A stretch of 46,533 nt of DNA from Bacteroidales bacterium. GTDB lineage: Bacteria; Bacteroidota; Bacteroidia; Bacteroidales; UBA12077. The translations under genes were made by a program, and so were the position numbers. The stretch is from positions 1-46,533 of the forward strand of contig JANQHR010000068.1 in the NCBI GenBank assembly GCA_028282585.1, given 5' to 3'. Positions 13,398-46,533 of the stretch are shown here, one piece after another (position 1 is the stretch's first letter; each line of letters opens with the position of its first letter). The notes below the pieces were generated by a model that saw only the letters and a list, made by a program, of their open reading frames with translations, was not told the origin of the DNA and did no database searches.

Positions 13398-13433
13398 AAA
13401 TGTCACGTTTTTACCAGTTAAAACGTGACATTT
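13398..13433. promoter_or_regulatory. Perfect 14-bp inverted repeat, probable antitoxin autoregulatory operator
   Basis: AAATGTCACGTTTT-taccagtt-AAAACGTGACATTT, lying just upstream of the -7 element of the TA operon. Confidence 0.75.
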
Positions 13434-13435
13434 AT

Positions 13436-13443
13436 TATATTTG
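13436..13443 (+). promoter_or_regulatory. Bacteroidota -7 element of the AbiE operon
   Basis: TATATTTG, 17 bp upstream of ATG 13461. Confidence 0.6.
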
Positions 13444-13460
13444 TACAAAACAAATATATC

Positions 13461-14186: not shown

Positions 14187-15157
14187 TGCTACATACAGAG
14201 AAAGAGTTATTTGAAGCTGCAATCAAAGAAACGGCTGATAATCTTGGCATAAAGGATTACTTTATTGAAAAAGATTACTGGATTAGTTTAGTGTTAAAAC
14301 GATTATCGGAAAGCAGGTATGTAGATTCGGTTGTTTTTAAAGGTGGTACATCCTTATCAAAAGGACATAAACTAATTAATCGTTTCTCTGAAGATGTTGA
14401 TTTGGCTGTAATTATTACTTCGGAAACAAGCGGAAATCAGGTTAAAACATTAATAAGAACGGTTGAAAAGGAAATAGCATCTGATTTGAATGAGATAGAG
14501 GTTGATAGAGTTACTAGCAAAGGTTCTCGCTTTAGAAAAGCAGTGTATCAGTATCCCACAACATTTAAACCAAAACAGAAGGTTGCCATCTCAGATTCAA
14601 TTATTGTTGAGATAAACTCTTTTGCAAATCCATTTCCTTATTCAAAAGTTAGCATCCAAAGCATGATAGGTGAATACCTGCAAAGTCAAAATCAAGATGA
14701 GTTAGTCAAAAAATATGATTTAAAAGCCTTTAAATTAAATGTGCTGGATAAAGTGCAAACTTTAATCGAAAAACTGGTTTCACTCATACGCTTCTCGTTT
14801 AATGAAAACCCATTAGAAAACATTTCAGGTAAAATAAGGCACTTCTACGACCTTTACTATTTAATGCAAGATGAAGTTTGTAACAAACATGTTAATTCAG
14901 AGCAATTTAGTGTAGCTTTTAAAAAAGTAATTGAGCATGACCGAAAGCAATTTGATGAGCCAATTGGTTGGAATGAAAAGAAAACTATTGAATCACCTTT
15001 AATAAAGGATTTTGATTCAATTTGGGCGAGTCTGAAATCAACCTATACAAATGAATTGTCTTTGTTGGCCTTCACTGATATACCAGAGGAAAAAGATGTT
15101 GCATTAAAGTTCAAAGAATTGGTTGTAATAATTGAAAGTATAACAGATGATTTGTAA
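14183..15157 (+). CDS. AbiEii/AbiGii-family nucleotidyltransferase toxin
   Basis: EKDYW, FKGGTSLSK, RFSEDVD, EKL and RHFYDL motifs. Confidence 0.92.
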   Translation: MMLHTEKELFEAAIKETADNLGIKDYFIEKDYWISLVLKRLSESRYVDSVVFKGGTSLSKGHKLINRFSEDVDLAVIITSETSGNQVKTLIRTVEKEIASDLNEIEVDRVTSKGSRFRKAVYQYPTTFKPKQKVAISDSIIVEINSFANPFPYSKVSIQSMIGEYLQSQNQDELVKKYDLKAFKLNVLDKVQTLIEKLVSLIRFSFNENPLENISGKIRHFYDLYYLMQDEVCNKHVNSEQFSVAFKKVIEHDRKQFDEPIGWNEKKTIESPLIKDFDSIWASLKSTYTNELSLLAFTDIPEEKDVALKFKELVVIIESITDDL

Positions 15158-32611: not shown

Positions 32612-33355
32612 TTAGTGCTTTTCTTCTTTGTATCCTTTTGTTGGGTCAATATCTAAGAATTTAGAGAAAATTCTAACTCCAATATAAAAAGGTACGGTAT
32701 CAACAAGTGCAGATGTCATTTTAAAGAAATAATTTGAAAGTATTAATATGGTCAAATACCGCGTGATGGAATAACCTTCCGGAACATCAATAATTTTGGC
32801 ACCATAATATGTAATTAAAACTACCGATAGTGAGTCAATTAACTGACTAGTTAAAGTTGAGCCATTATTCCTTAGCCATAAATGTTTACCTTTTGTAATT
32901 CTTTTAATAAAATGAAAAACGTGTACATCAACAAATTGGGCTGTTAAATAAGCAATCATTGAAGCAGAAGTTGCTCCAAAAGTTAATGCCCTGATAGTAA
33001 AAAAAGCCTCGCTATTTACGGATGGGTCTTCAGGTAATTTGCCTCCAAACCATAAAATAAAAAGAACCCATAGATTTAATAGAAGACCGGTCCATACAAC
33101 AATATTTGCTCTCTTCTTGCCATATAATTCACAAATGAAATCTGTACACAAGAACGTGATCGGATATGCTAATGTTCCAACAAAAACCCTAAAGGGTATT
33201 TCCTTTCCGCTTATGCTAAATGATAAATCGATCAACCTGGATAAACCAAGAACATTTGTTAATGCTAATGAACCAATAAATAAACCTGCAAGTATAACGA
33301 AAACAGCTTCTCTTCGATAAGCATATTTATCTTCAAATTTTGTATTTGTAAACAT
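32612..33355 (-). CDS. Queuosine precursor transporter (YhhQ/VUT family)
   Basis: YPITFLCTDFICELYG, ASMIAYLTAQFVDV and LWLRNNGSTLTSQLIDS motifs. Start taken at ATG 33355. Confidence 0.92.
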   Translation of the reverse strand: MFTNTKFEDKYAYRREAVFVILAGLFIGSLALTNVLGLSRLIDLSFSISGKEIPFRVFVGTLAYPITFLCTDFICELYGKKRANIVVWTGLLLNLWVLFILWFGGKLPEDPSVNSEAFFTIRALTFGATSASMIAYLTAQFVDVHVFHFIKRITKGKHLWLRNNGSTLTSQLIDSLSVVLITYYGAKIIDVPEGYSITRYLTILILSNYFFKMTSALVDTVPFYIGVRIFSKFLDIDPTKGYKEEKH

Positions 33356-33580
33356 ATCAGTCAATTAAAAAGAAATTTAAAGATATGTAGTTTTTAATTA
33401 ATTATCAATGAACTCGTTAAAAATATAAGAACGAGAATTAAGATCGAAAACCCTCAATTATTAACAAAATCAGCGTACGTATTGTTTGAAATACCGTAAA
33501 AGTTTTTAATCAAATATTTATCAACAATTTAGCTTTGATAACTTAAGGTGATATTTTCACTAACAATTATTACGAATTTT

Positions 33581-33588
33581 TATCTTTG
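33581..33588 (+). promoter_or_regulatory. Bacteroidota -7 element, candidate promoter of the right-end operon
   Basis: TATCTTTG, about 93 bp upstream of ATG 33682. Confidence 0.45.
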
Positions 33589-33681
33589 AAGATTAGATTA
33601 TTAAAAAAGCTTTAATTGCTAGTCTTTTTATTGATAGTTAGCAATTTAATTGGTATATTACGCGATCAAATCTTATATTTC

Positions 33682-36600
33682 ATGATGAAAAATGTTTACG
33701 CTATTTTTAATGTTGAGAAAGAAGAAAAATCAAGCGTTTCATTATTTCTAATACAGTCTGTATTCTTGGGAATATTCTATGGTGCTTTTGATGTTGGAGC
33801 TCACGCATTATTCCTTTCTGAATATCCAGCTTCGATGATTCCAAAAGCTTATGTTATTTCCGGAGTTGTTGGAATTGTTTTAACATCGTTATATGCAAGA
33901 TTTCAAAGTCGATTCAAATTTTCAACTGTTGCAACAGTTAATCTGATCTTTATTGCCATTTCAACAGCCATTTTAAGAGTTCTTTTCCAATTTACTGAAA
34001 GTCCCTGGTTAGTATTTCTTATTTTTATTATGATGGGACCTTTGAATATAATTGCACTTTTAGGTTTTTGGGGTGCGGTAGGTCGAATATTTTCATTAAG
34101 ACAGGGAAAGAGGTTATTCGGATTAATTGATAGCGGACAAATATTCGGAGCTATTTTAAGTACATTCGCTATCCCGATATTGATTGCAGTTGGATTTGAA
34201 CAAAAAAACCTTTTATTTCTTAGTTCTGTAAGTATTGGTTGCGCCTTGATCGTTCAAATAATAACTTCGTTTAAATTTAATCTTAATAAACAGGTAGCAA
34301 AAAAAGAAAAAAAATCTAAAAGAAATAATTTATTTACTTTATTAAAAAATAGGTACGTACTTTACATGTCTGTTTTTGTTGTAATGTCTATGCTTGCAGC
34401 ATTTTTTATACAATTTTCTTTCCTATCGGTTACAAAAGAAAACTATCCTGACCATAATGATTTAGCTGAGTTCTTAGGTGCATTTACCGGTAGTTTGCTT
34501 TTATTTACTTTTATTTTTAAAACATTCCTTTATAGTAAGTTGATGAAAACTTACGGACTAAAAGTGAGTGTGTTAATATCATCGTTTTTATTAGGAATAT
34601 TTACTGTTATTGCGGTATTAATAGGTTCTGCATTTGGATATACTATAGAATCTACAAGTTTTATTTTCTTTTTCTTAATTATAGCTCTAAGTAGATTATT
34701 TTCTAAGGCGTTAAAAGATGGTGTTGAAGTACCTTCATTCAAAATCCTCTATCAATCCTTAAAAGCCGAAATAAGACATGATGTTCAGGCGGTTGTTGAT
34801 GGAACAATTAATGAAATTGCAGCGCTTTTCGCAGGATTGCTATTAGCCGCATTAAGTTTGTTTGAGTTTTTTAAACTAATTCATTTTTCATACTCTTTAA
34901 TTATTATATTGTTGATTTGGTTTTTCTTTTCACGAAAACTTTATTCAGAATATAAATTATCTCTCCAGAAATCGTTGGCAGAGTTTAAAGGTAAAAAAGA
35001 AGAAAGTGAAACGATATCAGATTTTATTGATAAAAGTTTAAACGATGGCATTGACGATATTAAAAACATAATTCCCGGATTAGAATTTGATTATGAATTA
35101 CACCCAATTTTATTTGAAGAAAAAATAGATAAACTTGTAAATCATAACAGGAAAGAGATATCAGAATACTCTAGAGAAAAAATTATAAAATCCAGACTAT
35201 TTGGTTCAATAAATTATTTAGATGGGGCAAATACATTATCAAAGCAAATAAAGGGATTAGATATTAAAATTGATAAATCACCAGGCGTTGAAAAGCTGAT
35301 TAGTTTATCAAAATCAAAAGGAACTGAAGATAGAGTTATAGCTGCGCACTTAATTGGCAGGTTTTATGAACCTGATTTATTTACATATCTAAAAGCATTA
35401 ATCCGAGATTTACAACCTTCCGTAAAAATTGCATCGATTAAGGCTGCGGCAAAATCAAAAAATAAAGATTTCTGTTCGTTAATTATTGATTATTTAGATG
35501 CACCAGGTTTAATATCGTATTCTTATGATGCATTGTTAAGTTTTGGAGGGGATGCGTTGAATACTGTTGATCAATATTTCTATAAAACAGGCGTAAGCCA
35601 TAGAGTTTTACTAAGAATCGTAAAACTAATAGGACAAATAGGAGGAGAAGAAGCAAAAGCTGCATTGCTCAGAAAACTGGATCACCCAAATGAAGAGATT
35701 TTAAATTATGTTCTTGTATCATTAAACAATTTGGGCTTTACTGCAGATGAAAAATCTATTTCACATATTCATCAAATTATTGAGAAACATATTGGTATCA
35801 TAGGATATAATTTAGCTGCACAGGCAACTTTAGATGAAACTAACGGATTTGAATATTTAAAGCAAGCTTTCAAAGAAGAGATAACTTCGAATTATGAATT
35901 GCTATATTTATTATTATCTATTGCCTATGATGCACAATCAGTGCTGCATGTAAAGGAAAATATAGAAAGCGGAACAACAGAAGGTAGTAGTTATGCTTTG
36001 GAGTTGTTGGATTTGTTTATATATGAAGAAATTAAGCCCAAACTATTTCCAATCATTGAAGATATTTCGATAATAGAGAAGATAAAGCAATTACAGAATT
36101 ATTATCCAATAGAGAAATTAACTTTTAAAGACCTATTAATTTCAGCAATAAATAAAGATATTAATGAAATTAATATATGGACTAAAGCATGTGCAATTTA
36201 TGCTTTTTCTGAATTGGAGGATAAAACAATTCCCAGTGATTTAGTTGCACATTTATTTAACCCTAATGATATATTAAGAGAAACCGCAGGTATTGTAATA
36301 AATGATATAAATAAAGACCAGTTTAATGCAATAGGCATAAGATTAAGTGAAGCATATAGGGAGGAGATGGATAACACATTAGATTTATTAAATGTTTCAA
36401 ATAATCATTTATTATTTGAAAAAACATGGTTTTTAAAAGCTAATAAATATTTTAATCATGTTGATGGTAGGTATTTATACCAATTAGCTAAGTGTATGAG
36501 CAGTTTAAACTATCAATCTTATGAGTTAAGCGATTTAATTGTTACAGATTTAAAAGATAAATTACTTTTAACAAAAGGTAAGCCAATTCTTCTTACAATT

Positions 36601-36810
36601 GATGATGAAATATCGCATGAGATTATTGAAGGAGAGCTTTATGACATGAATGACCTATTGGTAGATGCTAAAAAGAAGGTATCTGTTGATAAATCTGAGG
36701 AAAATATACTTTATTTTATCAAAAAGAATGACCTTGTACATAACGTTTTTGATTTTCATAAAATTGAATTAGCAATAATTAATTGGATAGATTCAAGGAT
36801 AAAAGTATAG
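33682..36810 (+). CDS. NTT/TLC (ATP/ADP translocase-like) MFS domain + HEAT repeats + degenerate cNMP-binding domain
   Basis: About 12 TM helices with the NTT-like FWG...IFSLRQGKRLFGLI motif, HEAT-like repeats (LKALIRDLQPSVKIASIKA; LLRKLDHPNEEI), and C-terminal FEKTWFLKANKYF like the start of a cNMP domain. Start taken at ATG 33682. Confidence 0.82.
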   Translation: MMKNVYAIFNVEKEEKSSVSLFLIQSVFLGIFYGAFDVGAHALFLSEYPASMIPKAYVISGVVGIVLTSLYARFQSRFKFSTVATVNLIFIAISTAILRVLFQFTESPWLVFLIFIMMGPLNIIALLGFWGAVGRIFSLRQGKRLFGLIDSGQIFGAILSTFAIPILIAVGFEQKNLLFLSSVSIGCALIVQIITSFKFNLNKQVAKKEKKSKRNNLFTLLKNRYVLYMSVFVVMSMLAAFFIQFSFLSVTKENYPDHNDLAEFLGAFTGSLLLFTFIFKTFLYSKLMKTYGLKVSVLISSFLLGIFTVIAVLIGSAFGYTIESTSFIFFFLIIALSRLFSKALKDGVEVPSFKILYQSLKAEIRHDVQAVVDGTINEIAALFAGLLLAALSLFEFFKLIHFSYSLIIILLIWFFFSRKLYSEYKLSLQKSLAEFKGKKEESETISDFIDKSLNDGIDDIKNIIPGLEFDYELHPILFEEKIDKLVNHNRKEISEYSREKIIKSRLFGSINYLDGANTLSKQIKGLDIKIDKSPGVEKLISLSKSKGTEDRVIAAHLIGRFYEPDLFTYLKALIRDLQPSVKIASIKAAAKSKNKDFCSLIIDYLDAPGLISYSYDALLSFGGDALNTVDQYFYKTGVSHRVLLRIVKLIGQIGGEEAKAALLRKLDHPNEEILNYVLVSLNNLGFTADEKSISHIHQIIEKHIGIIGYNLAAQATLDETNGFEYLKQAFKEEITSNYELLYLLLSIAYDAQSVLHVKENIESGTTEGSSYALELLDLFIYEEIKPKLFPIIEDISIIEKIKQLQNYYPIEKLTFKDLLISAINKDINEINIWTKACAIYAFSELEDKTIPSDLVAHLFNPNDILRETAGIVINDINKDQFNAIGIRLSEAYREEMDNTLDLLNVSNNHLLFEKTWFLKANKYFNHVDGRYLYQLAKCMSSLNYQSYELSDLIVTDLKDKLLLTKGKPILLTIDDEISHEIIEGELYDMNDLLVDAKKKVSVDKSEENILYFIKKNDLVHNVFDFHKIELAIINWIDSRIKV

Positions 36811-36845
36811 TTTAAACAGATTATTCATTAAACCATCAAACATCT

Positions 36846-38858
36846 ATGCTCAAAAGACTAATTAACAGAATTAAATTATATTATATGCGTAAGACCACTA
36901 TTTTTAAGCAACTTATTTTAAATGTTGTTATTCCCGCAGTCTCAGCATTATTAATTTTAGGTGCTTTTAATTATACTCAAACAAAAAAGAATTTAGTTGA
37001 GTCTATTGATACAAAAAATAGATTATTAGCAGAGGAGATAATTCACGTCACAGAATTTATGGAATTATCCTTAAAAATTGTTGAGCGGGAGCTCGACCCT
37101 ATTATGGAGGAATATAGCAACGAATTAGTGCACAAATATTTCAAAAACACAGAAGGTATCGAAGAGGCAGATTTAGAAAAAATTAGGGAAGAGTTGGGAA
37201 TGGATCCTGAAATGGAAGATATCTATATTATTAATAGGGAAGGTGTTGTGGTTAACACCACTTTTGAAAAGGATTTGGGATTGAACCTTTTCTCATTTGG
37301 TGAAGATCATAAAGAGTTACTGCTAGATATTTTTAAAGAAGGGAAATTTGTTAATGAACGTTTTACAGTAGAACATAACACAAAAAGGCTAAAAAAATAT
37401 ACTTACCATCCCACAATGGATGGTGAATATATTATCGAATTAGGTATATATTCTTATAGGACCGATGAAATAATAGAATTTTTTAAAAATACTATTAAGA
37501 AATTATCTCAAAATCAGCCTTCTATTGTTGACGTTGATTTATTTGTAAGTAAAGATCACCCAATTTCTTTAACCAAGGATATGGAGTTACCACAGTCCGA
37601 AATTGACTTTATGAAGGATAGGTTTGCTAAACAGGACTCTACAAGGATTCCAATGAAAATAAATAAGAAGAAGTTGTATTATACATACTTATATATCAAA
37701 AGGGCAAATTCGGACCTTTATAAAGGCGCTGTTGTTAGAATTATTACAGATAGGACAAGAGAAGAAATATTGTTAAGAAATGAGTTAATCAAATTTGTGT
37801 CAATTTTTGGATTAACAATCTTAATCGTAATAATATTATTGTATAGAAAAACAAAGGTAATAACGCACCCAATAAAAAAATTAGTTGAGAAAGTAACCAG
37901 GGTTTCAGATGGTAATTTAAGTATTAGAGCAGAGGTTGAAGGAAACAATGAAATTACTACCCTTTCTCAAAAATTCAATGCCATGATAGCGGAATTGGAG
38001 AGTTATTATAATGAATTGGAACAGAAAGTAAAAGATAGAACAGCTGAGGTGGTTCGTCAAAAAGAGGAAATTGAAATTAAGAACAAGCATATTACAGATA
38101 GTATTAAGTATGCCAAAAGAATTCAAAATGCAATCTTACCTCCGGATAATTACGTAAAACAATTATTGCCTAATTCATTTATACTATATAAGCCTAAAGA
38201 TATCGTAAGCGGGGATTTTTACTGGATGACTAAGAAAAGTAATTTAACGATATATGCAGCTGTAGATTGCACCGGTCATGGTGTTCCCGGGGCATTTATG
38301 TCAATTGTTGGAAATAATCAATTAAACTATGCCGTTGATGTAAAAAAGGCAAGGCAGGCTAGTACTATTCTTGACTGTTTAAATGAGGGTGTAATCGAAA
38401 CCTTAAGAGAAAAAGGTAATGAACATTTGCAAGTAAGTGGTGTAAAAGACGGAATGGATTTGGCTTTATGTATTATTGACCATAAAAATATGAAGCTTCA
38501 ATTTGCAGGTGCTAATAACCCTATATGCTTAGTGCGAAATGGTGAATTAACTCAAATTAAGGGCGATAGAATGGCAATTGGAGGTAACTTTTCTGATGAT
38601 TTACCAAAATTTACAAATCATGAATTAGATTTGCAAAAAGGGGATGTATTATATACATTTTCTGATGGTTATCCTGATCAGTTTGGAGGAGAAAATGGTA
38701 GGAAATTTATGCTTAAGAAATTTAGAGAACTATTACTTAAAATACATAAAAACCCAATCGAAGAACAAGAAAAAATTCTCGATGATGTTTTAGAAAACTG
38801 GAGAGGTAAAGAGGAGCAGGTAGATGACATTCTTGTTATCGGAGTTAAAATTGAATAG
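36846..38858 (+). CDS. Membrane SpoIIE/RsbU-type PP2C phosphatase with periplasmic Cache-like and HAMP domains
   Basis: Two TMs flanking a sensor region (YIINREGVVV), HAMP (ITHPIKKL...NEITTLSQKFNAM), and intact PP2C motifs VSGDFY, DCTGHGVPGA, DGMD, FSDG and VDDI. Confidence 0.92.
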   Translation: MLKRLINRIKLYYMRKTTIFKQLILNVVIPAVSALLILGAFNYTQTKKNLVESIDTKNRLLAEEIIHVTEFMELSLKIVERELDPIMEEYSNELVHKYFKNTEGIEEADLEKIREELGMDPEMEDIYIINREGVVVNTTFEKDLGLNLFSFGEDHKELLLDIFKEGKFVNERFTVEHNTKRLKKYTYHPTMDGEYIIELGIYSYRTDEIIEFFKNTIKKLSQNQPSIVDVDLFVSKDHPISLTKDMELPQSEIDFMKDRFAKQDSTRIPMKINKKKLYYTYLYIKRANSDLYKGAVVRIITDRTREEILLRNELIKFVSIFGLTILIVIILLYRKTKVITHPIKKLVEKVTRVSDGNLSIRAEVEGNNEITTLSQKFNAMIAELESYYNELEQKVKDRTAEVVRQKEEIEIKNKHITDSIKYAKRIQNAILPPDNYVKQLLPNSFILYKPKDIVSGDFYWMTKKSNLTIYAAVDCTGHGVPGAFMSIVGNNQLNYAVDVKKARQASTILDCLNEGVIETLREKGNEHLQVSGVKDGMDLALCIIDHKNMKLQFAGANNPICLVRNGELTQIKGDRMAIGGNFSDDLPKFTNHELDLQKGDVLYTFSDGYPDQFGGENGRKFMLKKFRELLLKIHKNPIEEQEKILDDVLENWRGKEEQVDDILVIGVKIE

Positions 38859-38860
38859 TT

Positions 38861-40234
38861 ATGTCAAACGATGATTCTGACGTTTTAATTTATATCCCGT
38901 TAAAAAAAGATAAATTAGGGGAGTACGATTTAAATTGGATTAATTCTTTTCAGTCTATTTTAGAAACAAGCTTGCAACAAATTACCAGGCAGGCCATTAA
39001 CGTAGATAAATCATTTTTAGGTGAAATTATAGCAGGGCAGAAGTTTAAAGTGCTTGTTGAGTTACTTCCAAATGCGGATTTTGAGGATATAGATGAACAA
39101 TTGTTTGGTGACAAACGAACTATTCAAGTTAATTGTCATCCAGATATTATTAAAGAAATTTCTAAAGAATCTTTTATAGTTAATTTGTATGATGAGATAA
39201 AAAATAATCCAGTTGATATTACAGGGCGTATTGATGAGCTTAAAAATGAAGTTTGGCTGAAGTTTTTAGATATAGCTTATGAAATAAGAGAAGCAGTTAC
39301 AACCAGAAGAGAATCAAAGCGGGTCAAGGGAAAGATATTTGTTGCAGAAACAAGTTCGGAACAGAATGTAAATCGCGAAACAATAATTAGAGAACTAGAA
39401 CATTTAGGTTATAATATTCTACCAGACAAGCATTTTCCAAAAGATATGAACTCTTTTAGCGAATTGGTTCACAATAGTATGAAAGAATGTTTTTTATCTA
39501 TTCATATTATTGGTAATTTTTATGCACCATTAATTAAGAATATTGATGTATCTAGTATTGAATTACAGAACGATTTATTTCATGAAGTAGCAGCTGAACT
39601 AAATACAAAAGGTCAAATTTTAAAAAGATTAGTTTGGATTCCACCGGATATAAAACCAAAATCCGAAAAACAGAAATTATATATTGAAAGTTTTAAACGT
39701 AATATTGAATTACTAAAAAATACAGAAATAATTCAAGCTCCTATTGAAGTATTCAAAACTATAATTGAAGGAAAAGCACAATCTATTTTAGAATCAAAAA
39801 CTACAAAAGAAGTTGATAAGAAAGAAATCAGTTCGGTTTATTTAATTTCAAATAATTTAAATAGTGATTATTATAACGTAATGAAAAGCGAATTGTTAAA
39901 CCATAAACTAGATGTTCTGGAAGTTGTTGATACTAATAATAAAATTGAATTAATACAAAATCATTACTATAATTTAATTAATTGCGATGCTTTATTAATT
40001 GATTATTCGGTTAGTAATTCGCAATGGCTAAATAGTAAATTAAGTGATGTAATAAAATCACCAGGTTTTGGCAGGAAAAAGGATTTTATTGTAAAATCGG
40101 TTTTACTTAATGTGGAAGAAACCCCTGATATAAATATAAAGATTAGTAACCTGGATATTATTAACAATCATAAAAAGGATATTAATCAGAGATTAATTTC
40201 TTTCATCGAAAAAATTAATAAAAATGATACCTGA
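38861..40234 (+). CDS. Cytoplasmic multi-domain TIR-like/DUF4062-like protein
   Basis: Three alpha/beta blocks: DVLIYIP...NWINSF, IFVAET...RETIIRELEHLGYNILP...LSIHIIG, and VYLIS...CDALLIDY...WLNSK. Overlaps the STAND gene by 11 bp. Confidence 0.65.
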   Translation: MSNDDSDVLIYIPLKKDKLGEYDLNWINSFQSILETSLQQITRQAINVDKSFLGEIIAGQKFKVLVELLPNADFEDIDEQLFGDKRTIQVNCHPDIIKEISKESFIVNLYDEIKNNPVDITGRIDELKNEVWLKFLDIAYEIREAVTTRRESKRVKGKIFVAETSSEQNVNRETIIRELEHLGYNILPDKHFPKDMNSFSELVHNSMKECFLSIHIIGNFYAPLIKNIDVSSIELQNDLFHEVAAELNTKGQILKRLVWIPPDIKPKSEKQKLYIESFKRNIELLKNTEIIQAPIEVFKTIIEGKAQSILESKTTKEVDKKEISSVYLISNNLNSDYYNVMKSELLNHKLDVLEVVDTNNKIELIQNHYYNLINCDALLIDYSVSNSQWLNSKLSDVIKSPGFGRKKDFIVKSVLLNVEETPDINIKISNLDIINNHKKDINQRLISFIEKINKNDT

Positions 40235-43200
40235 TAATAATTCAAATAGTACCAATGGTATTTTTAATCCATTTCCCGGACTAAGGCCTTTTAAGGTAGA
40301 AGAAAGCCATTTATTTTTTGGCAGGGAAGGACAAAGCGAAGAAATTTTAAAGAAATTATCCGAAGAAAGATTTGTAGCAGTTATTGGTGCATCAGGTAGT
40401 GGTAAATCTTCTTTGATTTATTGTGGGTTAGTTCCAACATTATATGGTGGGTTTATTGGTGAAGCTAAGTCAAAATGGAACATAATTGCATCGCGTCCAG
40501 GTAATGCTCCTATAGAGAATTTAGCAAATGCAATACTTGCTAAAACTTCAACTGAGGATGAAAATAATTTAATTAAACAAAAGTTAAATGCATCCATCTT
40601 AAGAAGTAGTTCAAATGGCTTAGTTGAGATACTGGATCAAACTTTTGATTTTGAAAAGGAAAATATATTAATCATAATTGATCAATTTGAAGAATTGTTT
40701 AGATATAAGAGCAGTAGAAAGGATCAATCTACATATAATGAATCAGAAGCATTTGTAAAACTCTTGGTTAACGCAGATAAAACGCCGGATATACCGGTAT
40801 ATATAGTTTTGACAATGCGATCTGATTTTATTGGTGAATGTTCGCAATTCCATGAACTAACTGAACTTATTAATGATTCAAACTACCTGGTTCCCCAAAT
40901 GACTCGCGATGATTTTAAGCGGGCGATCGAAGGTCCGGTAGCAGTTGGAGGAGCAAAAATTGAAACTCAGTTGGTACAGCAGTTATTAAATGAGGTTGGA
41001 GACAATCCTGACCAATTACCTATCTTACAGCATGCATTAATGAGAACATGGAATTATTGGATGGAGCATTCCGATAGAAACCAGCCTATAAACATTTCTG
41101 ATTATGAGGCAATTGGTAGAATGGAAAAAGCACTCTCCGAACATGCTAATGAAGCTTACGATGAGTTAAGTGATGATCAAAAGCGAATCTGTGAAAGTCT
41201 GTTTAAAACGATCACAGAGAAAGGAAATGATAATCGAGGAATTCGCCATCCAACTAGTATTATGGACATTGCTTCGATTTCGAAAACAACTTCTGATCAG
41301 GTGATTAGTGTAATTGATCCGTTTAGAGCTGCTGGTAGATCATTTATTACTCCATCGTCGGAAGTTCCTTTAAATGAAGATAGTATTATTGATTTATCAC
41401 ACGAAAGTTTAATGCGGATTTGGAATAAGTTAAAGCTATGGGTTGAGGAAGAATGGAATGCAGTGCAAATGTATATGAGGTTATCGGAGGCGGCGGAGAT
41501 GTATCAAGTTGGAAGTACGGGATTATGGCGCCCACCAGATTTGCAGTTGGCATTAAATTGGCGCGAAAAACAAAATCCAACATTAGCCTGGGCACAACGA
41601 TATAATCCAGCTTTTGAGAGATCAATGGTTTATCTTGAAACCAGCGATAAACAATTTAGAGCCGAAGAAGAAAATAAAGTAAAACTTCAAAAACGACAAT
41701 TACGTCGATCTAAAATATTTGCAATAGTTCTTGGTTCCGCAGCCATTGTAGCGATGGGGCTGACTATTTATTCTCAAACTTTAAAAACAAAAGCAGAAAA
41801 ACAAGAACGTATTGCAAATGAACAGAAACTAGAAGCAGAAAAACAGAAAGAAATAGCAGAGCAGCAAACGGAACTAGCTAAACAACAAGAACAGATAGCT
41901 GTTGAACAGAAAGATATTGCCGATCAGCAAAGGCAAATTGCGGTGGAAAAAGAGCAGGAAGCAACTCAGAATTATGAAATTGCTCAACAACAAACAAATC
42001 TTGCTATTGAAAGAGAGAAAGAAGCTAATGAGCAAAGAGCATTAGCCGAAGAGAATGCCGAGGAAGCAAGAAAGCAATCGATGGCGGCAGAAAAAGCTCG
42101 ACAGGAAGCTTTTCAACGTCGAATGTTGTCAATATCACAAAGTATGGCTGTTAAATCTTTACAGATTTCTGATGATACACAGTTAAAAGCACTAGTTGCA
42201 TATCAATCTTATATGTTTAATGAGAACTTTGAAGGACCAATGCATAATCCTGATGTTTATTTAGGGTTATATTATGCTTTAAAAGGATTAAAAGGTCAAT
42301 TTCATAATGCTTTAAATGGTCATACAGGTTCTGTAATGGATATTGCATTTGTACCGGGATCTAATATTATGTATAGTACTGGTGGAGATGGTAAAATAAT
42401 TAAATGGGATATTGATAATGTTGAAAAACCTTTCGAAACCATAATAGAAAATACATTATCACAACGTTCTTTAGGAATAACTCCGGATGGAAAGTGGTTG
42501 ATTTGTGCCAAAGATGATGGGAAAATATTACTCTTAAACTTAGCCAATAATGTTGAGGTTGATAGAGAACTGGAAGGACATACTCGAATGGTAAGTTCTA
42601 TAGAGGTTGCACCAAATAATAAATTTTTCATTTCAGCAAGTAACGATAAAACCATAAGAAAGTGGGATTTAAATACTTTGGAAAGTGAAGTTTTTGTTCG
42701 AAGTGATTCCAAAATAAATTCCGTTGAAATCTCAAGAAATTCTGAGCTGATATTGGCAGGAACGCAAGATGGAAGAATTCATATTTATAATGCAAATGAC
42801 ACTTCTGATGTTAAAGTTATTGAAAATGAAGTTAATGCATCAATAAGCGCATTAAAATATAATAATGAAGGTAATTGGCTTGTAGCCGGAGATTCAAAGG
42901 GAAATGTAGTTATAAGAGATGCAGAAAGTCTAGTAAAAATAGAAAATCTGGAAGGACATAAATCTAGAATATACGATATTGATTTTAATATTAATGATCA
43001 TCAGTTGGCTACATCTAGTCTTGACGGTACGGTTCGAATTTGGGATTGTATGAATTTAAATAATCAACCAATTGAATTAACAGATCATGAATCATGGGTA
43101 TTGTCAATTGCATTTACGCCAGATGGAAAAAAACTTGTGACTTCCAGCAATCAAAAAGACAGAATATTAATATGGTCTACTAAACTAGACTATATTGCAG

Positions 43201-43304
43201 AAGAATTAAAAACTAGAATTACTCGTAATATGTCAAATGAGGAATGGAACGTTTACGTTGCCGAAGATATAGAGTATGAACAAACACTAGCGAATATAAA
43301 TTAA
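40224..43304 (+). CDS. nSTAND1-type NTPase with TM helix, long coiled coil and WD40 propeller (Hat/HatR-like annotation)
   Basis: NPFPGLRPF, FFGRE, Walker A GASGSGKSS, Walker B IIIDQFEELF, LTMRSDF, LPILQHAL, and DLSHESL. TM at 41715-41774, 16 Ala-led heptads, then about 7 GH...WD repeats. Confidence 0.92.
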   Translation: MIPDNNSNSTNGIFNPFPGLRPFKVEESHLFFGREGQSEEILKKLSEERFVAVIGASGSGKSSLIYCGLVPTLYGGFIGEAKSKWNIIASRPGNAPIENLANAILAKTSTEDENNLIKQKLNASILRSSSNGLVEILDQTFDFEKENILIIIDQFEELFRYKSSRKDQSTYNESEAFVKLLVNADKTPDIPVYIVLTMRSDFIGECSQFHELTELINDSNYLVPQMTRDDFKRAIEGPVAVGGAKIETQLVQQLLNEVGDNPDQLPILQHALMRTWNYWMEHSDRNQPINISDYEAIGRMEKALSEHANEAYDELSDDQKRICESLFKTITEKGNDNRGIRHPTSIMDIASISKTTSDQVISVIDPFRAAGRSFITPSSEVPLNEDSIIDLSHESLMRIWNKLKLWVEEEWNAVQMYMRLSEAAEMYQVGSTGLWRPPDLQLALNWREKQNPTLAWAQRYNPAFERSMVYLETSDKQFRAEEENKVKLQKRQLRRSKIFAIVLGSAAIVAMGLTIYSQTLKTKAEKQERIANEQKLEAEKQKEIAEQQTELAKQQEQIAVEQKDIADQQRQIAVEKEQEATQNYEIAQQQTNLAIEREKEANEQRALAEENAEEARKQSMAAEKARQEAFQRRMLSISQSMAVKSLQISDDTQLKALVAYQSYMFNENFEGPMHNPDVYLGLYYALKGLKGQFHNALNGHTGSVMDIAFVPGSNIMYSTGGDGKIIKWDIDNVEKPFETIIENTLSQRSLGITPDGKWLICAKDDGKILLLNLANNVEVDRELEGHTRMVSSIEVAPNNKFFISASNDKTIRKWDLNTLESEVFVRSDSKINSVEISRNSELILAGTQDGRIHIYNANDTSDVKVIENEVNASISALKYNNEGNWLVAGDSKGNVVIRDAESLVKIENLEGHKSRIYDIDFNINDHQLATSSLDGTVRIWDCMNLNNQPIELTDHESWVLSIAFTPDGKKLVTSSNQKDRILIWSTKLDYIAEELKTRITRNMSNEEWNVYVAEDIEYEQTLANIN

Positions 43305-43314
43305 CCCTAACAAT

Positions 43315-44346
43315 ATGAATCAACTTTTACACTATATTCCAATACTGCTTTTAATTCTAATGTCACTATCTTCCAAGTCACAAGAAAATACTTGTGCTTT
43401 TAAATTGGAAGAAGCTGAAGCTTTATATGAAACTGGTATTCTCGATTCTATTCCATCAATATTAAGATCGTGTATCAGTAATGACGGTTTTGACGATGAA
43501 GAGCTATCAAGAGCATATAAATTATTAATTCTTACTTACCTTTTTGAAGATTATCAGGAAATGGCGGAATTAACTATGTTAAAATTCTTAAAAGAATTCC
43601 CTGAATACGAGTTAAAAGCAACTGATCCCGTTGAATTTACTTTTTTATACAATTCGTACCAAACTATCCCTTCATGGTCAATAGGTATTATAGCTGGAGG
43701 AAACTATTCTTTTGCAAGAATAATTGAACCATATTATATGGATAACTCGAATGAATACAAAGGGGAATATAAGACAGGAATTTCTTTTCAAGCAGGTTTG
43801 CAACTTAAGAAATATATTACAGATGAGATAGATATTAATCTTGATATAATGTATACTGCAAAAACATTCGAATATTCGATCGAACAAATTAATACCACTA
43901 CAAATTACTTAGAAAACCAATCTCTTTTATCAGTTCCATTATCGGGTACATACGATTTTAATTATGGCAAATGGGATCCGTATGTGCGAATAGGAATTAG
44001 TCTGGATTACTTATTAGGAGCTAAAGCAGATTTTGAAAAAATATACCCTTCAGATCAGTCTCAATATAATATTAAAGAAACGGATGTAGATATTATTGAT
44101 GACAGAAATCTATTTCAAATATCCGCCTTGATTGGTGGTGGGGTTAAATACAATATCAAAATGGGCTATGTAATGTTAGACGTTAGATATCATTATAATT
44201 TTACAAATATCGTAAACGGGGAAAACCGTAATAGCAGTTTAAAGTGGGCTAATTATAATTATATAGATGATGATTTTACCGTTAATAATATCTATTTCTC
44301 TTTAGGGTTTGTATATCCTTTCTATAAAACAAAACAAAGCAAATAA
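43315..44346 (+). CDS. Outer-membrane beta-barrel (PorT-like) with N-terminal TPR-like helical domain
   Basis: Signal peptide (SKS-Q), helical CAFKLEEAEALYETG...AYKLLILTYLF region, then amphipathic strands (LSVPL, LDVRYHY, FSLGFVY). Confidence 0.78.
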   Translation: MNQLLHYIPILLLILMSLSSKSQENTCAFKLEEAEALYETGILDSIPSILRSCISNDGFDDEELSRAYKLLILTYLFEDYQEMAELTMLKFLKEFPEYELKATDPVEFTFLYNSYQTIPSWSIGIIAGGNYSFARIIEPYYMDNSNEYKGEYKTGISFQAGLQLKKYITDEIDINLDIMYTAKTFEYSIEQINTTTNYLENQSLLSVPLSGTYDFNYGKWDPYVRIGISLDYLLGAKADFEKIYPSDQSQYNIKETDVDIIDDRNLFQISALIGGGVKYNIKMGYVMLDVRYHYNFTNIVNGENRNSSLKWANYNYIDDDFTVNNIYFSLGFVYPFYKTKQSK

Positions 44347-44362
44347 GTAAATATCAATAATC

Positions 44363-45580
44363 ATGTGTAAACTAAAAAATATTATTATTCTGTTTTCTTT
44401 ACTATTTTTCCTTGCATGCGATCAGCTTGATATTTCTTCAAATCAAGCAGAAAGCTTTGTGAAATTTTATGGATCAGAAGGTGCAGATGTTGGTGTAGAT
44501 GTTAAAAATTTTAATAATGGTTACCTAATTCTTGCTACAGCTACTTCAGGAAGTGGTAGTACTGATATGGTGCTAATTCAAACTGACAAATTTGGTAATT
44601 TGATAGAAAGTGCTGTTGATACCCTATCTTCTGTTAGGGGAGGAAACAATAATGCGTCTGAGTTATTACTAACCTCCGATGGAGGATTTGTGGTAGTAGG
44701 CACTGTTAATGATACTTTAAATAAACATACTGATATTTATGTAGGAAAGTTTAGCTCTAGCGCAGAAAACGAATGGGAAAAAGTAATTGGAACAATTAAT
44801 AACGAAGTAGGAACTTCAGTAAAAAAAGCTAATTCAGGTTATATTATTGCCGGGAGCACTGATGCAGAGGATGATGGAAATGGAAATAACAGAGGGTTCA
44901 AGGATATTTTTTTGGTAAAAATTGATGATACTGGAAATGTTGAATGGATGCAAAATCATGGTTTTGAAGGTAATGACTATTCAGGTGAGGTAATTGTTGT
45001 TGAAAATGGGTATTTGATTGTAGGAACAACAGAATCAACACTTCATAGCCAAGAAAATAATAACATTATTTTACTTAAAACTAATCAAGTGGGTATAAGC
45101 CCCGAAATAGATACATATGGTGGAGATCAGAATGATTATGGAAATGCTATTGTAAGAACTAGTGATGAAGAATTTATTGTGGTTGGTTCTGTAGAGAATG
45201 TTGCAGGAGACAATTCAAGTATTTATGTATTTAAAATATCGGATAATATATTTGAAACCGAATGGGTTGAACAGTATGAGGAATCATTAAATGCACGCGG
45301 ATATGATATTACTGGAGCAAATGGAGGATTTGTTATTGTTGGAGACATAGAATTAACAACTGGTTTTGCAGGCAGCTTTTTAAAAATTAGTGGAGATAGG
45401 GAGATTCTAATTGGTAACTCAAATGAGGGAAGAGATGCATTAACTTATGGCGGTTATGGACAAAAATTATATGCAATAGAACCTACTTCTGATGGAGGTT
45501 ATATTATGGTCGGAAGTTCAGGTGTCTCAGGAATAGAAATGATCTATCTGTTAAAAGTAAACTCCAATGGAGAGTTGTAA
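44363..45580 (+). CDS. Lipoprotein with beta-propeller-type repeats
   Basis: Lipobox FLA-C followed by an acidic stretch; repeated T-x-DGG(F/Y)-h-h-h-G...D-h-h-h-h-K units. Confidence 0.8.
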   Translation: MCKLKNIIILFSLLFFLACDQLDISSNQAESFVKFYGSEGADVGVDVKNFNNGYLILATATSGSGSTDMVLIQTDKFGNLIESAVDTLSSVRGGNNNASELLLTSDGGFVVVGTVNDTLNKHTDIYVGKFSSSAENEWEKVIGTINNEVGTSVKKANSGYIIAGSTDAEDDGNGNNRGFKDIFLVKIDDTGNVEWMQNHGFEGNDYSGEVIVVENGYLIVGTTESTLHSQENNNIILLKTNQVGISPEIDTYGGDQNDYGNAIVRTSDEEFIVVGSVENVAGDNSSIYVFKISDNIFETEWVEQYEESLNARGYDITGANGGFVIVGDIELTTGFAGSFLKISGDREILIGNSNEGRDALTYGGYGQKLYAIEPTSDGGYIMVGSSGVSGIEMIYLLKVNSNGEL

Positions 45581-45621
45581 TTCTGTTTTTTAATTTGATT
45601 AGGACTATAAATTAATTAATT

Positions 45622-46533
45622 ATGAAAGTATTTTATAGGATATTGGGATTGACAATGCTTTTTTTACTGTCAAGTAACGTTTACTCACAAATGACTATTG
45701 TAGATGCAGTAGCAATTGATGGAAATTCAGACGGTTATTATGGCACTATTGAGTTTAAGTTTTCGACTAATATAGTTGATTCAGAATTTGATCAAAGTGT
45801 TTTTACTGATAATGAATGGATATTCTCATTAGATCCATTTTTTTCTGATACTTTAAGCCCAAATAACTGGAATACTAACGTAAATGAAATAGATGGTGGA
45901 GTAACGGGAGGAGATGATGAGTATATACAAATTGTATTTCCTCTTGATGGCCAATTTCAAGCAAGTAGTGGCCCTGTTTACATGAGATATACAAACGGCA
46001 ATGCTGATGAAATTACAGAAAGCGGTGGTGCTAATGATACATTGTTTAGTTTCTCACTGTATAGTGCCCGTGATTTGGCCCCGCCAGAGATTGATACTGT
46101 AATGTCTAATGCAAATTCGGTTGATACATTAATTGTAGGTGAATCCATAACTTTTACGGTGGATTTTAATGATTCTATACCAGATCCAAATCTAACTATT
46201 TATCCTTTACAATATAATGGAGGAGATCTGAATTGGGGGACTTTAAATAATGGTGATACGTATATAGGAACTTACACTGTTGTTGAAGGCCATGATGACC
46301 AATTTCCACCAAAGCAACTTACAGGAGTTTATGCGGTTGACGAAGAAGGTAATACAAGTAAAAGTATGTTTGATGGAAGTGATGTTGAGAAATCCATAGA
46401 TGCCAACACCCCGGTAATTAATAGTGTAACATCTAATGCGACACTTTCAGATACTTTAATTGCAGGCGGTTCAATAGAATTTACAGTAGATATTCAAGTA
46501 GATGATCCGAATTTGGTCATAACACCTTCAACT
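45622..46533 (+). CDS. Exported acidic surface protein with tandem Ig-like repeats (partial, runs off the window)
   Basis: Not in the ORF track. Open for 304 codons from ATG 45622 (MKVFYRILGLTMLFLLSSNVYS-Q). 109-aa repeat: DLAPPEIDTVMSNANSVDTLIVGESITFTVD vs DANTPVINSVTSNATLSDTLIAGGSIEFTVD. Confidence 0.85.
   Translation, partial: MKVFYRILGLTMLFLLSSNVYSQMTIVDAVAIDGNSDGYYGTIEFKFSTNIVDSEFDQSVFTDNEWIFSLDPFFSDTLSPNNWNTNVNEIDGGVTGGDDEYIQIVFPLDGQFQASSGPVYMRYTNGNADEITESGGANDTLFSFSLYSARDLAPPEIDTVMSNANSVDTLIVGESITFTVDFNDSIPDPNLTIYPLQYNGGDLNWGTLNNGDTYIGTYTVVEGHDDQFPPKQLTGVYAVDEEGNTSKSMFDGSDVEKSIDANTPVINSVTSNATLSDTLIAGGSIEFTVDIQVDDPNLVITPST

Follow-up and report, generated by a model that had tools for sequence, protein, structure and literature searches.

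A conserved gene cluster of Bacteroidota centred on a predicted transmembrane STAND NTPase: a possible envelope-spanning signalling module

The window analysed here, a contig of 46,533 nucleotides from a Bacteroidales bacterium (JANQHR010000068.1), ends in a cluster of seven genes, g1 to g7, all of which lie on the + strand and are separated by gaps of 35, 2, −11, 10, 16 and 41 bp. Since the window is the entire contig, the last gene, g7, is truncated by the contig end. The sole cluster gap larger than 41 bp (33365..33681, +) lies between a divergent Vut_1 (YhhQ-like) gene and g1 and is the presumed promoter region; no match to the strict motif TTTG-N17-23-TAnnTTTG was detected in it. Between positions 32000 and 46533 six terminator-like hairpins were found, as compared with 5.5 ± 2.8 in shuffled sequences, and none of the six falls into an intergenic gap of the cluster. 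A preliminary description of this DNA had reported seven co-oriented genes with exactly these gaps and without an internal terminator, and both statements were borne out. No published description of such a cluster was found in the literature.

The product of g4 (40224..43304, +), a gene that overlaps g3 by 11 bp and is present in one copy in the genome, consists of an nSTAND1 NTPase, a transmembrane helix, an alanine-zipper stalk and a WD40 propeller. Pfam detected nSTAND1 (328.9 bits) and WD40, and the Walker A and B motifs are intact. The hydrophobic helix (residues 498–516; 41715..41771, +), located by hydropathy, was called at the same place in 29 of 29 orthologues, two of which have a second, weaker call. 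Its N-terminal flank has a net charge of +6 or +7 in 28 of these 29 proteins and its C-terminal flank one of −1 to +5. Based on hydropathy and this charge bias, the positive-inside rule puts the NTPase on the inner and the C-terminal half on the outer side of the membrane; g4 is thus predicted to be a single-pass protein with a cytoplasmic NTPase and with stalk and WD40 domain in the periplasm. Orthologue comparison revealed that the stalk (residues 524–629; 41793..42110, +) comprises 16 unbroken heptads with alanine at a constant position. At least 15 alanines in one register are present in 33 of 37 orthologues, and exactly 16 in 24 of them; with about 112 residues the stalk would span roughly 16–17 nm if helical. 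The WD40 β-propeller (about residues 695–1000; 42306..43223, +), delimited by Pfam and predicted from topology to be periplasmic, is moderately conserved rather than hypervariable (identity 0.41–0.62).

The adjacent gene g5 (43315..44346, +) encodes an outer-membrane β-barrel protein (OMP_b-brl_2; Pfam, 49.2 bits) with a signal peptide and a small barrel of about 225 residues. The best-conserved portion of g5 is its N-terminal helical domain, g5N (residues 24–116; 43384..43662, +), which was defined by orthologue alignment and whose two cysteines, C27 and C53, show no variation in sets of 29 and 24 sequences. In related and variant loci the gene following g4 always encodes an outer-membrane protein starting with the Cys-paired g5N. 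In four variant loci (L103, L148, L149, L150) it is a TonB-dependent receptor that carries g5N, directly before its Plug domain. In a sample of 401 genomes of the phylum, a g5N gene comes next after 13 of 20 g4-like nSTAND1 genes (at least 289 bits). The C-terminal parts of the other seven are of different kinds, for example TPR, or were not recognised; among them, the WD40 profile of g4 still matches L170 (7e-12) and, weakly, L171. Conversely, g5N is not exclusive to g4, as 12 further g5N genes that were examined from other lineages have no g4-like neighbour. The relay from barrel via WD40 to STAND that had been proposed initially gains comparative support from the persistence of g5N behind g4 even where a TonB-dependent receptor replaces the barrel.

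The arrangement of g4 and g5N resembles cell-surface signalling of the FecA-FecR-FecI type. Common to both are an outer-membrane protein with an N-terminal periplasmic extension, which in the four variant loci directly adjoins the receptor Plug, and a neighbouring gene whose product crosses the inner membrane once and has a large domain in the periplasm. By contrast, the extension is here the Cys-paired helical g5N and not a recognised STN domain (Pfam gave only Plug and barrel), and a STAND NTPase takes the place of the anti-σ factor in the inner membrane, with no ECF σ factor gene in the putative operon.

At the upstream end of the cluster, g1 (33682..36810, +; possible ORF starts at 33616 and 33682) encodes an inner-membrane carrier composed of an NTT domain (TLC/MFS, 12 transmembrane helices), HEAT repeats and a cNBD-like domain. 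Pfam matches were obtained to TLC (23.9 bits, cut-off 21) and HEAT_2 (33.3 bits). The orthologue profile matches the chloroplast ADP/ATP carrier 9j3j (E 2e-11), αRep/HEAT proteins and, with positions 923–1054, the cNMP-binding domains of PKG and HCN (E 3e-9); the orthologue consensus does not preserve the residues of the phosphate-binding cassette. Such NTT-HEAT(-cNBD) fusions, which share the three-part architecture of g1, have been described as a monophyletic, widespread and uncharacterised family (Major, Embley and Williams 2017, PMC5381601). Unlike in this general description, the carrier gene of Bacteroidota nearly always neighbours one for a transmembrane STAND, a context of which the part of that paper available to us makes no mention. 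In the 401-genome sample 11 of 12 strong g1-like genes (ten matched over their full length, E ≤ 1e-219, and one of G430 whose match is split in two, 3e-77 and 1e-57) share a cluster with a g4-like gene. Only in G137, a genome outside the class, do the g1-like and g4-like genes sit on separate contigs. A lone g1+g4 pair resides on plasmid pPP2 of Persicobacter psychrovividus, with no g5 within 13 kb. Judged from gene neighbourhoods, g1, which is likewise single-copy in the genome, is the most faithful partner of g4.

The second gene, g2 (36846..38858, +), encodes a sensor phosphatase with two transmembrane helices, a periplasmic domain, HAMP and a SiaA-like PP2C/SpoIIE domain. Pfam identified HAMP and SpoIIE, and the PP2C part matches PDB 6k4e (E 5e-56). 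While most domain calls of the preliminary description were supported by Pfam or profile matches, its Cache assignment was not, because the 270-residue periplasmic part of g2 matched nothing in domain and profile searches. The order of transmembrane sensor, HAMP and PP2C is that of the partner-switching phosphatases SiaA, RsbU and SpoIIE; however, the match to NCBIfam SiaA (252 bits over residues 295–669) remains far below the equivalog cut-off of 700, and, unlike SiaABCD, the putative operon contains neither SiaB/C/D nor a STAS gene. Mean column identity of g2 is 74% in 22 orthologues. The gene is missing in G043, G046 (where L033 equals L083), L077 and every Cyclobacteriaceae locus, which makes the PP2C a lineage-specific accessory and speaks against the earlier idea of the phosphatase as core output. 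Partner-switching genes also occur next to g4 elsewhere: a STAS gene immediately upstream in L148 and, in L150 and Runella rosea, STAS and RsbW-like kinase genes beside it. Outside the cluster, the genome to which the window belongs contains four free-standing STAS genes and three RsbW-like genes.

Downstream of g5 are the genes for two surface or secreted proteins. g6 (44363..45580, +) is a predicted β-propeller lipoprotein, with a lipobox read from the sequence (Cys19) and a profile match to the CylK β-propeller (E 2e-33). Of g7 (45622 to beyond 46533, +), a giant surface protein with repeats, the contig retains the first 304 residues, a fragment without Pfam match. Its full-length orthologues comprise 1218–1885 amino acids (about 2460 by coordinates in the closest relative) and terminate in a T9SS Por_Secre_tail domain, after which convergent genes follow. 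An ECF-like gene trio lies in convergent orientation downstream of the cluster in relatives.

These surface proteins are compatible with an uptake or surface-organelle machine of PUL-like layout, in which g4 would be a structural or energy-coupling tether similar to TolA-TolB or TonB. From its inner-membrane anchor, the g4 rod with its propeller would keep its partners (barrel or TonB-dependent receptor, lipoprotein and giant adhesin) in place or supply them with energy, and the captured substrate would be taken through the inner membrane by g1. In the variant loci g4 is accompanied by both a TonB-dependent receptor and a g1-like carrier, which amounts to a pair of outer- and inner-membrane transporters, the strongly conserved stalk length of 16 heptads suits a spacer across a periplasm of fixed width, and glycan enzymes (GlgX) adjoin the Runella-type variant. 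Yet STAND NTPases are known as switches, not motors, the small g5 barrel is unlikely to be a substrate channel, SusD-like and TonB/ExbBD genes are absent from the cluster, and PP2C, STAS and RsbW-like kinase are parts of partner switches and point to signalling. We therefore consider a tether unlikely.

Synteny, on which the preliminary description had let its proposal depend, is maintained in all related loci examined as far as the DNA reaches, including many uncultured Bacteroidales. All 17 same-genus loci retrieved keep the order g1 to g7 between identical flanking genes up to the respective contig ends, 16 of them being complete. The order is likewise kept, to the end of the available DNA, in 37 of 37 GTDB-species loci, a set that overlaps with the genomes of the former. 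Five Cyclobacteriaceae loci have the six-gene core g1-g3-g4-g5-g6-giant gene without PP2C. This preservation of gene order across families and orders is more than expected by chance. That the cluster is no single unit but two or three independent modules (g1-g2; g3-g4; g5-g7), adjacent merely by descent, would agree with the dispensability of g2 and g3 in some loci, with g3-like and nSTAND1-TM pairs that occur without g1, g5, g6 and g7, and with the existence of g5N apart from g4. We regard this as very improbable, given the close spacing of the genes without any terminator between them and the association of g1, g4 and g5N, which survives changes of order, barrel type and neighbourhood in at least two orders and G137.

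The soluble product of g3 (38861..40234, +) contains three TIR-like α/β domains, d1 to d3, recognised by profile and motif comparison. d1 is a degenerate TIR domain that has lost the segment bearing the W-x-x-E motif. d2 is DUF4062-like, with Gln236 at the position of the catalytic glutamate. d3 carries the motif W389-x3-K393-x2-D396-x2-K399-x-P-G-x-G, and from motif alignment we infer that Lys393 takes the place of the W-x-x-E glutamate. The match of g3 to DUF4062 is sub-threshold (17.2 bits, cut-off 24.7); eight of 21 orthologues match at E ≤ 0.01, and more distant relatives exceed the TIR_2 and DUF4062 cut-offs. The catalytic position is occupied by Gln in 216 of 225 g3 relatives (Glu in 8, Leu in 1) versus Glu in 8/8 canonical Bacteroidia DUF4062 proteins (motif S-x-T-x-x-E-[YF]). 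g3 was detected in 27 of 36 same-genus genomes and in 4 of 24 other families of the order. It is missing from a second Cyclobacteriaceae cluster (L151, L152) and hence dispensable to the g1-g4-g5 core.

The combination of g3 and g4 raises the question of an NLR/Avs-type system for phage defence or conflict; the preliminary description had named conflict as one option. WD40 or surface parts would sense an invader or envelope breach, the STAND would oligomerise, and g3 would deplete NAD+ or synthesise a nucleotide signal, resulting in growth arrest. According to the accessible portions of two preprints (10.64898/2026.05.01.722283, 10.64898/2026.09.04.749371), DUF4062 domains are TIR-like NADases that STAND (Avs) and further defence systems employ as effectors, and human TEP1/NWD1 have the order DUF4062-NACHT-WD40; nSTAND1, as far as the consulted text of PMC8195603 goes, was defined in conflict-system surveys. 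Moreover, g3 evolves fastest of the cytoplasmic parts, and a set of cytosolic paralogues from the same phylum (a TIR_2+DUF4062 protein, two nSTAND1 proteins and TPR-S) looks conflict-like. Against this stands the apparent lack of a catalytic glutamate in all three g3 domains; the same E-to-Q change at the DUF4062 site is reported to have abolished defence in PsAvs2, Vulcan and Vesta. Furthermore, PADLOC matched no system (only a 20-residue P-loop match, E 5e-4), g3 homologues were absent from the 72,556 plasmids searched, the WD40 domain lacks hypervariability, and the single-copy cluster occupies a fixed locus with constant housekeeping flanks, identities declining in step across its genes. 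A conflict function thus appears improbable.

The likeness to NLR-like STAND receptors (Avs with a DUF4062/NIR domain, TEP1/NWD1, APAF-1) lies in three features: the P-loop NTPase of the STAND class, whose Walker motifs are intact, the WD40 sensor at its C-terminus, and the TIR/DUF4062-like partner, which stands on the N-terminal side and is here the product of a separate, overlapping gene. Unlike in these receptors, the effector-like partner is devoid of the catalytic Glu. The transmembrane helix and the 16-heptad stalk separate the g4 sensor from the NTPase, so that the sensor is predicted to be periplasmic, and the cluster is chromosomal, vertically inherited and tied to outer-membrane and transporter genes.

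We read the cluster as a trans-envelope signalling module in preference to an immune system, and give about an even chance to a vertically inherited, envelope-spanning module centred on the STAND switch g4, in which all protein contacts are deduced from sequence comparison. In this model, g5N would be a periplasmic signalling extension that contacts the WD40 propeller of g4, paralleling the N-terminal extension of TonB-dependent transducers on FecR-type anti-σ factors. A surface event, be it ligand binding or load on the barrel, g6 or the T9SS-secreted g7, would alter this contact; the change would be transmitted along the rigid stalk, and the NTPase would flip between monomer and oligomer. 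The cluster products revealed neither a DNA-binding domain nor any other output domain of a classical kind, which makes the output step the weakest link of the model. The cytoplasmic read-out would be post-translational, with g4 most likely acting on its constant partner g1 and thereby gating nucleotide or NAD-type transport, and g3 may lack hydrolytic activity and serve as an adaptor or as a subunit that binds nucleotides. Through g2, the SiaA-like PP2C, the module would in Bacteroidales additionally be coupled to a partner-switching (STAS/anti-σ-kinase) relay.

An ORF scan places the seven genes g1 to g7 side by side on the + strand, starting at 33616/33682 and running to 46533, where the contig ends, and the coordinates bear out the preliminary description, which had reported seven co-oriented genes with gaps of 35, 2, -11, 10, 16 and 41 bp and had found no internal terminator hairpin. 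Six terminator-like hairpins were found between 32000 and 46533 (5.5 +/- 2.8 in shuffled sequences), none of them in any gap between g1 and g7. Because the window is the entire 46.5-kb contig, the truncation of g7 results from the assembly and not from biology; the genes 3' of g7 are convergent, which makes g7 the last gene of the unit. In two related loci (L042 and L043, from genomes G025 and G031), the position beyond the window's contig end is taken by three small convergent genes, conserved in both, that encode proteins of ~190 aa (sigma-70/ECF-like by N-terminal sequence), ~165 aa and ~190 aa. Three matches to the Bacteroidetes promoter pattern TTTG-N17-23-TAnnTTTG occur in the window (5.2 expected), all away from the cluster, and sigma-70-type promoter matches were no commoner than in shuffles (84 vs 76.5 +/- 9.4). 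Sequencing runs containing the stretch comprise one DNA run, which may be the source of this DNA, and no RNA run is listed. The surroundings of the cluster are ordinary (MnmE, a glycosylase, kinases) except for an AbiE-type pair 18 kb off, in which a DUF6088 gene precedes an AbiEii nucleotidyltransferase toxin gene (13425-15157; type IV toxin-antitoxin/abortive-infection pair). The window also contains a hybrid histidine kinase of 2474 aa with many PAS domains plus GAF, PocR, HisKA, HATPase and a receiver domain (18852-26276), a 1318-aa ORF without Pfam family (506-4462) and, on the opposite strand to it, an S8 subtilase with fn3, MAM and T9SS sorting domains (5420-8446).

The gene for the TIR-like protein, g3, was found in 27 of the genus's 36 other genomes, many of them incomplete, and in four of 24 other families of the order. 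Twenty g3-positive loci were fetched, longer contigs being preferred. Both the order g1-g7 and the flanking genes, a divergent Vut_1/YhhQ-like transporter and an SCP2-FMN-reductase gene, are identical in all 17 same-genus loci fetched, of which 16 are complete and one stops at a contig edge. The transporter gene (queuosine-precursor-type; 32612-33364, - strand, divergent from g1) occupies the same position in several Bacteroidales families (59-85% identity) and was not seen in the Cyclobacteriaceae loci described below. A second scan, in which each GTDB species was represented by one genome, yielded 37 loci that overlap the fetched same-genus set, and none of them departs from the order within the reach of its DNA, so that the gene neighbourhood on which the preliminary description had built its proposal proved conserved in both sets. 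These 37 loci belong to uncultured Bacteroidales MAGs, except for a contig labelled Thiohalospira sp. (Gammaproteobacteria; L075, JBKHIH010000070.1). It carries Bacteroidales flanks and g1-g3 at 34-75% identity, with g3 apparently split into two pieces that overlap, and its label is probably a binning error rather than a sign of transfer. That the cluster is a vertically inherited trans-envelope signalling module, with protein contacts inferred from gene neighbourhoods, is the likeliest reading, to which we give an even chance.

Members of the cluster differ in how firmly they are retained. The carrier gene g1 and the nSTAND1 gene g4 are each present once in this genome, g4 being its only strong nSTAND1 match, and the phosphatase gene g2 is missing in G043, in G046 (a single genome that appears twice, as L033 and L083) and also in L077. 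In a phylum sample of 401 genomes, full-length g3 was found in five of 12 genomes of one family, labelled Cyclobacteriaceae from protein look-ups, and in G310 of another family. All five Cyclobacteriaceae loci lack g2 and have the order g1-g3-g4-g5-g6-giant gene; a paralogous second cluster in these genomes (looked at in L151 and L152) has the order g1-g4-g5-g6-giant gene, g3 being absent. On plasmid pPP2 of Persicobacter psychrovividus, g1 and g4 stand alone within a contractile-injection-system locus (NZ_AP025294.1, 263860-291302), where the pair is flanked by divergent extracellular contractile injection system blocks with sheath, tube, baseplate V, PAAR, gp25, tape measure and LysM genes. 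Strong g1-like genes of the phylum sample (ten full-length at E<=1e-219; that of G430 in two pieces, 3e-77 and 1e-57) adjoin a g4-like gene in 11 of 12 cases, the sole exception being G137, where the two lie on different contigs. This pairing, the absences of g2 and g3 and the standalone couple on pPP2 make g1-g4 the tightest pair; g5-type genes rank next, followed by g6/g7, g3 and g2, which are increasingly dispensable. That g2 and g3 can each be lost would suit seven genes that are not one functional unit; against this stand the narrow, terminator-free gaps and the persistence of g1, g4 and g5-type genes together in changing genomic surroundings, and we regard this alternative as very improbable. 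Cultured carriers of cluster variants are Runella rosea HYN0085 and P. psychrovividus NBRC 101262.

Most domain labels of the preliminary description were verified (NTT-HEAT-cNMP-like, HAMP-SpoIIE, nSTAND1-WD40, barrel and propeller lipoprotein); the Cache label could not be confirmed, as the periplasmic part of g2 matched no family, Cache included, in Pfam at E<=5 or in a profile search. g1 combines a TLC/NTT transporter of 12 predicted transmembrane helices with HEAT repeats and a C-terminal cNMP-binding-like domain. Its orthologue profile matches the chloroplast ADP/ATP carrier 9j3j at 2e-11, alphaRep/HEAT proteins, and the cNMP-binding domains of PKG and HCN at 3e-9; Pfam at E<=5 gave no cNMP_binding, and no family for domains 1 and 3 of g3 or for the N-terminal domain of g5. 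The protein thus has the build of NTT-HEAT-cNBD carriers, three domains in one chain, with transport and cNMP binding as putative activities; the PBC residues are not conserved. g2 has two transmembrane helices, HAMP and a PP2C/SpoIIE domain and resembles the SiaA/RsbU class of PP2C, although it scores below the cut-off of the SiaA equivalog NF038263 (252 bits vs 700) and the cluster contains no SiaB/C/D-like genes. g5 is an OMP_b-brl_2 barrel. The lipoprotein g6 matches the CylK beta-propeller at 2e-33 in profile searches; the acidic residues that follow its lipobox cysteine (window 44363-44440; C-D-Q-L-D, with CDKFD, CDNLD and CSDDL in relatives) resemble the Bacteroidota lipoprotein surface-export signal, and on this ground g6 may be surface exposed. 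The g7 fragment in the window, cut by the contig end, has no Pfam match; full-length orthologues of 1218 to about 2460 aa end in a T9SS Por_Secre_tail sorting domain (E 5.6e-13 in the closest relative).

g4 matches nSTAND1 (PF20703) over residues 16-428 with 328.9 bits (cut-off 27.1), and its C-terminal WD40 sensor scores 146 bits. Walker A (GASGSGKS; GASGEGKS in two) and Walker B (hhhhDQ) are intact in all 29 orthologues. Unusual for an nSTAND1 NTPase is a transmembrane helix between NTPase and repeat sensor; it was found at residues 498-516 or equivalent in 29 of 29 orthologues, with a second, weaker call in two. The N-terminal flank of the helix carries a net charge of +6/+7 in 28 of the 29 and the C-terminal flank -1 to +5, a bias that by the positive-inside rule predicts a cytoplasmic NTPase and a periplasmic location of all that follows, that is, stalk and WD40. 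Directly after the helix, alanine recurs in one heptad position 16 times unbroken (residues 524-629). The count is at least 15 in 33 of 37 orthologues, Cyclobacteriaceae and receptor-variant forms included, and exactly 16 in 24, which suggests a rigid coiled coil, an alanine zipper some 16-17 nm long, that would serve as a periplasm-matched spacer. Identity to the window protein is highest in the NTPase (0.7-0.86) and moderate, not hypervariable, in the WD40 part (0.41-0.62). Open frames of 1483 and 1525 aa gave the appearance of a g3-g4 fusion in G010 and G028; this was rejected, since an in-frame stop separates two ORFs.

The best-conserved part of g5 is its N-terminal domain, g5N (residues 24-116, the first ~95 mature residues). 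Two of its cysteines are invariant (29 and 24 sequences), a pattern that fits a periplasmic domain with a disulfide bond; the PDB yielded no significant match by sequence or profile. Of the phylum sample's 20 genes for g4-like NTPases, 13 precede a gene that encodes g5N. In the window g5N is carried by a small barrel instead of a TonB-dependent receptor; in G310, G137, G400 and G430 (L103, L148, L149, L150; G137 lies outside the class) it sits ahead of the Plug of such a receptor. Runella rosea has the same arrangement but, as an apparent close relative of G430, is not counted separately. This constancy of the g4-g5N adjacency while the barrel type varies is the main comparative argument for a contact between WD40 and g5N, which we infer from gene neighbourhoods. 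FecA-type TonB-dependent transducers carry a signalling extension ahead of the Plug. The variant loci share with them the N-terminal extension and an adjoining inner-membrane partner with a predicted periplasmic domain; they differ in that no STN domain was found, Pfam giving only Plug and barrel on the variant receptors, and the g1-g7 operon contains no sigma or anti-sigma gene. A rod, a TonB-dependent receptor and a giant surface protein could likewise make up a tether that acts structurally or by coupling energy to uptake or to adhesin function; STAND NTPases, on the other hand, are known as switches and not as motors, the accompanying partner-switch components indicate signalling, and we consider a tether rather unlikely.

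g5N is not exclusive to this setting: none of 12 other g5N genes examined has a g4-like neighbour. Conversely, seven of the 20 g4-like NTPases lack a g5N neighbour and have other C-terminal domains, e.g. TPR, or none recognised; among them, the g4 WD40 profile still recognises L170 (7e-12) and, weakly, L171. A word-based search for longer g5N-bearing proteins returned none, whereas the profile search over genomes did find such proteins. In L149 (G400, contig C21), the gene 5' of the g5N-bearing receptor encodes 570 aa with a g4-type WD40 and no NTPase domain, which may be an NTPase-less periplasmic sensor or a split gene. In L159 (G412, contig C1), a g5N-TIG protein adjoins a Ser/Thr kinase with five PEGA domains, another pair of g5N and membrane signalling protein.

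Representatives retrieved with the g3 profile number 2708 at E<=0.001, of which 892 reach E<=1e-30; most matches are full-length. Against DUF4062 (PF13271) the window protein scores 17.2-20.5 bits (cut-off 24.7), and eight of 21 orthologues match at E<=0.01. The relatives L104 (26.1 bits) and L167 (33.6 bits) pass this cut-off, and relatives paired with other nSTAND1-TM proteins also pass that of TIR_2, with up to 80 bits, so that g3 can be read as TIR, DUF4062 and a third alpha/beta domain. In three 2026 preprints (among them 10.64898/2026.05.01.722283 and 10.64898/2026.09.04.749371), DUF4062 is described as a TIR-like NADase whose activity requires one glutamate ('E-Y' in the acidic-SYT region), E-to-Q mutants being dead. 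In all eight canonical Bacteroidia DUF4062 domains examined, this Glu lies at +5 of S-x-T-x-x-E-[YF], with variable flanking positions in some, and an HMM of the eight aligns it to Gln in L102, L099, L167 and L168. The corresponding residue of the window protein is Gln236, an assignment taken from the family alignments A1 and A3, since the HMM alignment stops at residue 222; the 225 relatives have Gln (216), Glu (8) or Leu (1). g3 thus lacks the catalytic Glu motif of the DUF4062/NIR NADases (Swarozyc, Evangelion, Avs-NIR, TEP1). In the window's genus, moreover, the segment of domain 1 that carries the TIR W-x-x-E in relatives is deleted, and domain 3 shows a near-invariant W389-x3-K393-x2-D396-x2-K399-x-P-G-x-G in which, by motif alignment, Lys393 appears to occupy the TIR glutamate position. 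Together these three features suggest that g3 is a non-hydrolytic adaptor or nucleotide-binding subunit, its conserved Gln resembling a natural substrate-trap. PDB searches with g3, its domain 2 and a canonical-looking relative, like those with g5N, gave nothing significant (a designed protein; EDS1 at E 0.35; nothing below E 0.3). hhalign related domains 2 and 3 weakly (E 7e-4, probability 27%, 60 columns) and found no match of domain 1 with either.

The preliminary description had proposed a signalling or conflict system. A TIR/DUF4062-like protein beside an nSTAND1 NTPase is compatible with an immune or conflict function; set against this are the silenced glutamate position and a PADLOC-DB 2.0 screen that matched no defence system, the library dating from 2023 and predating the DUF4062 systems. 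Six of the seven proteins had no match, and g4 had only a 20-residue P-loop match to mad3 (E 5e-4). We consider an immune role distinctly unlikely. A paralogous, apparently cytosolic system that looks like a classical conflict system occurs in the same phylum (L104-L107 in G418, G370, G259 and G426). It consists of a TIR_2+DUF4062+third-domain protein (~540 aa), two tandem nSTAND1 proteins of ~1350 aa and a ~270-aa protein, with Gln at the DUF4062 catalytic position as in g3; one TIR_2+DUF4062 copy has an N-terminal adenylate/guanylate cyclase domain, and L104, the only one of these loci Pfam-scanned, encodes a TPR-S/MAP3K_TRAF_bd protein.

In lineages without g2, STAS proteins are encoded directly upstream of g4: one in G137 (69 bits), and two together with an RsbW-like kinase in G430 and Runella. 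Elsewhere in the window's genome, STAS occurs as four free-standing genes, and three further genes are RsbW-like. The recurrence of PP2C, STAS and RsbW-like genes suggests that the output of the signalling module involves a partner switch under phosphorylation control.

STAND/NLR switches are known as cytosolic sensors, and trans-envelope signalling in Gram-negative bacteria is known from anti-sigma factors and two-component systems. It is tempting to speculate, though we do so tentatively, that g4 represents the first NLR-like STAND receptor sensing outside the cytoplasm: its periplasmic WD40, held on a fixed-length alanine-zipper rod, would read an outer-membrane receptor via the portable N-terminal extension, its NTPase would gate the NTT-HEAT-cNBD nucleotide/NAD carrier, and the catalytically silenced (Glu-to-Gln) TIR/DUF4062 protein would be the NAD/nucleotide-sensing subunit. 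In the literature consulted we found no transmembrane nSTAND1 with periplasmic WD40 and no NTT-HEAT/STAND pairing, though gene neighbourhoods of this kind, or the motif alignment, may be given in supplementary data to PMC5381601, PMC7159879 and the DUF4062 preprints. A periplasmic propeller joined to a cytoplasmic STAND and an outer-membrane transducer-like extension would, if confirmed, constitute a third route across the envelope. The Glu-to-Gln change (216 of 225) would offer a natural 'substrate-trap' TIR-like domain with which the ligands of these domains could be sought. The near-obligate pairing with the carrier makes testable what NTT-HEAT fusions do in free-living bacteria and, if the model holds, would provide the first functional context for a family that extends to cyanobacteria, Chlamydiaceae and oomycetes.
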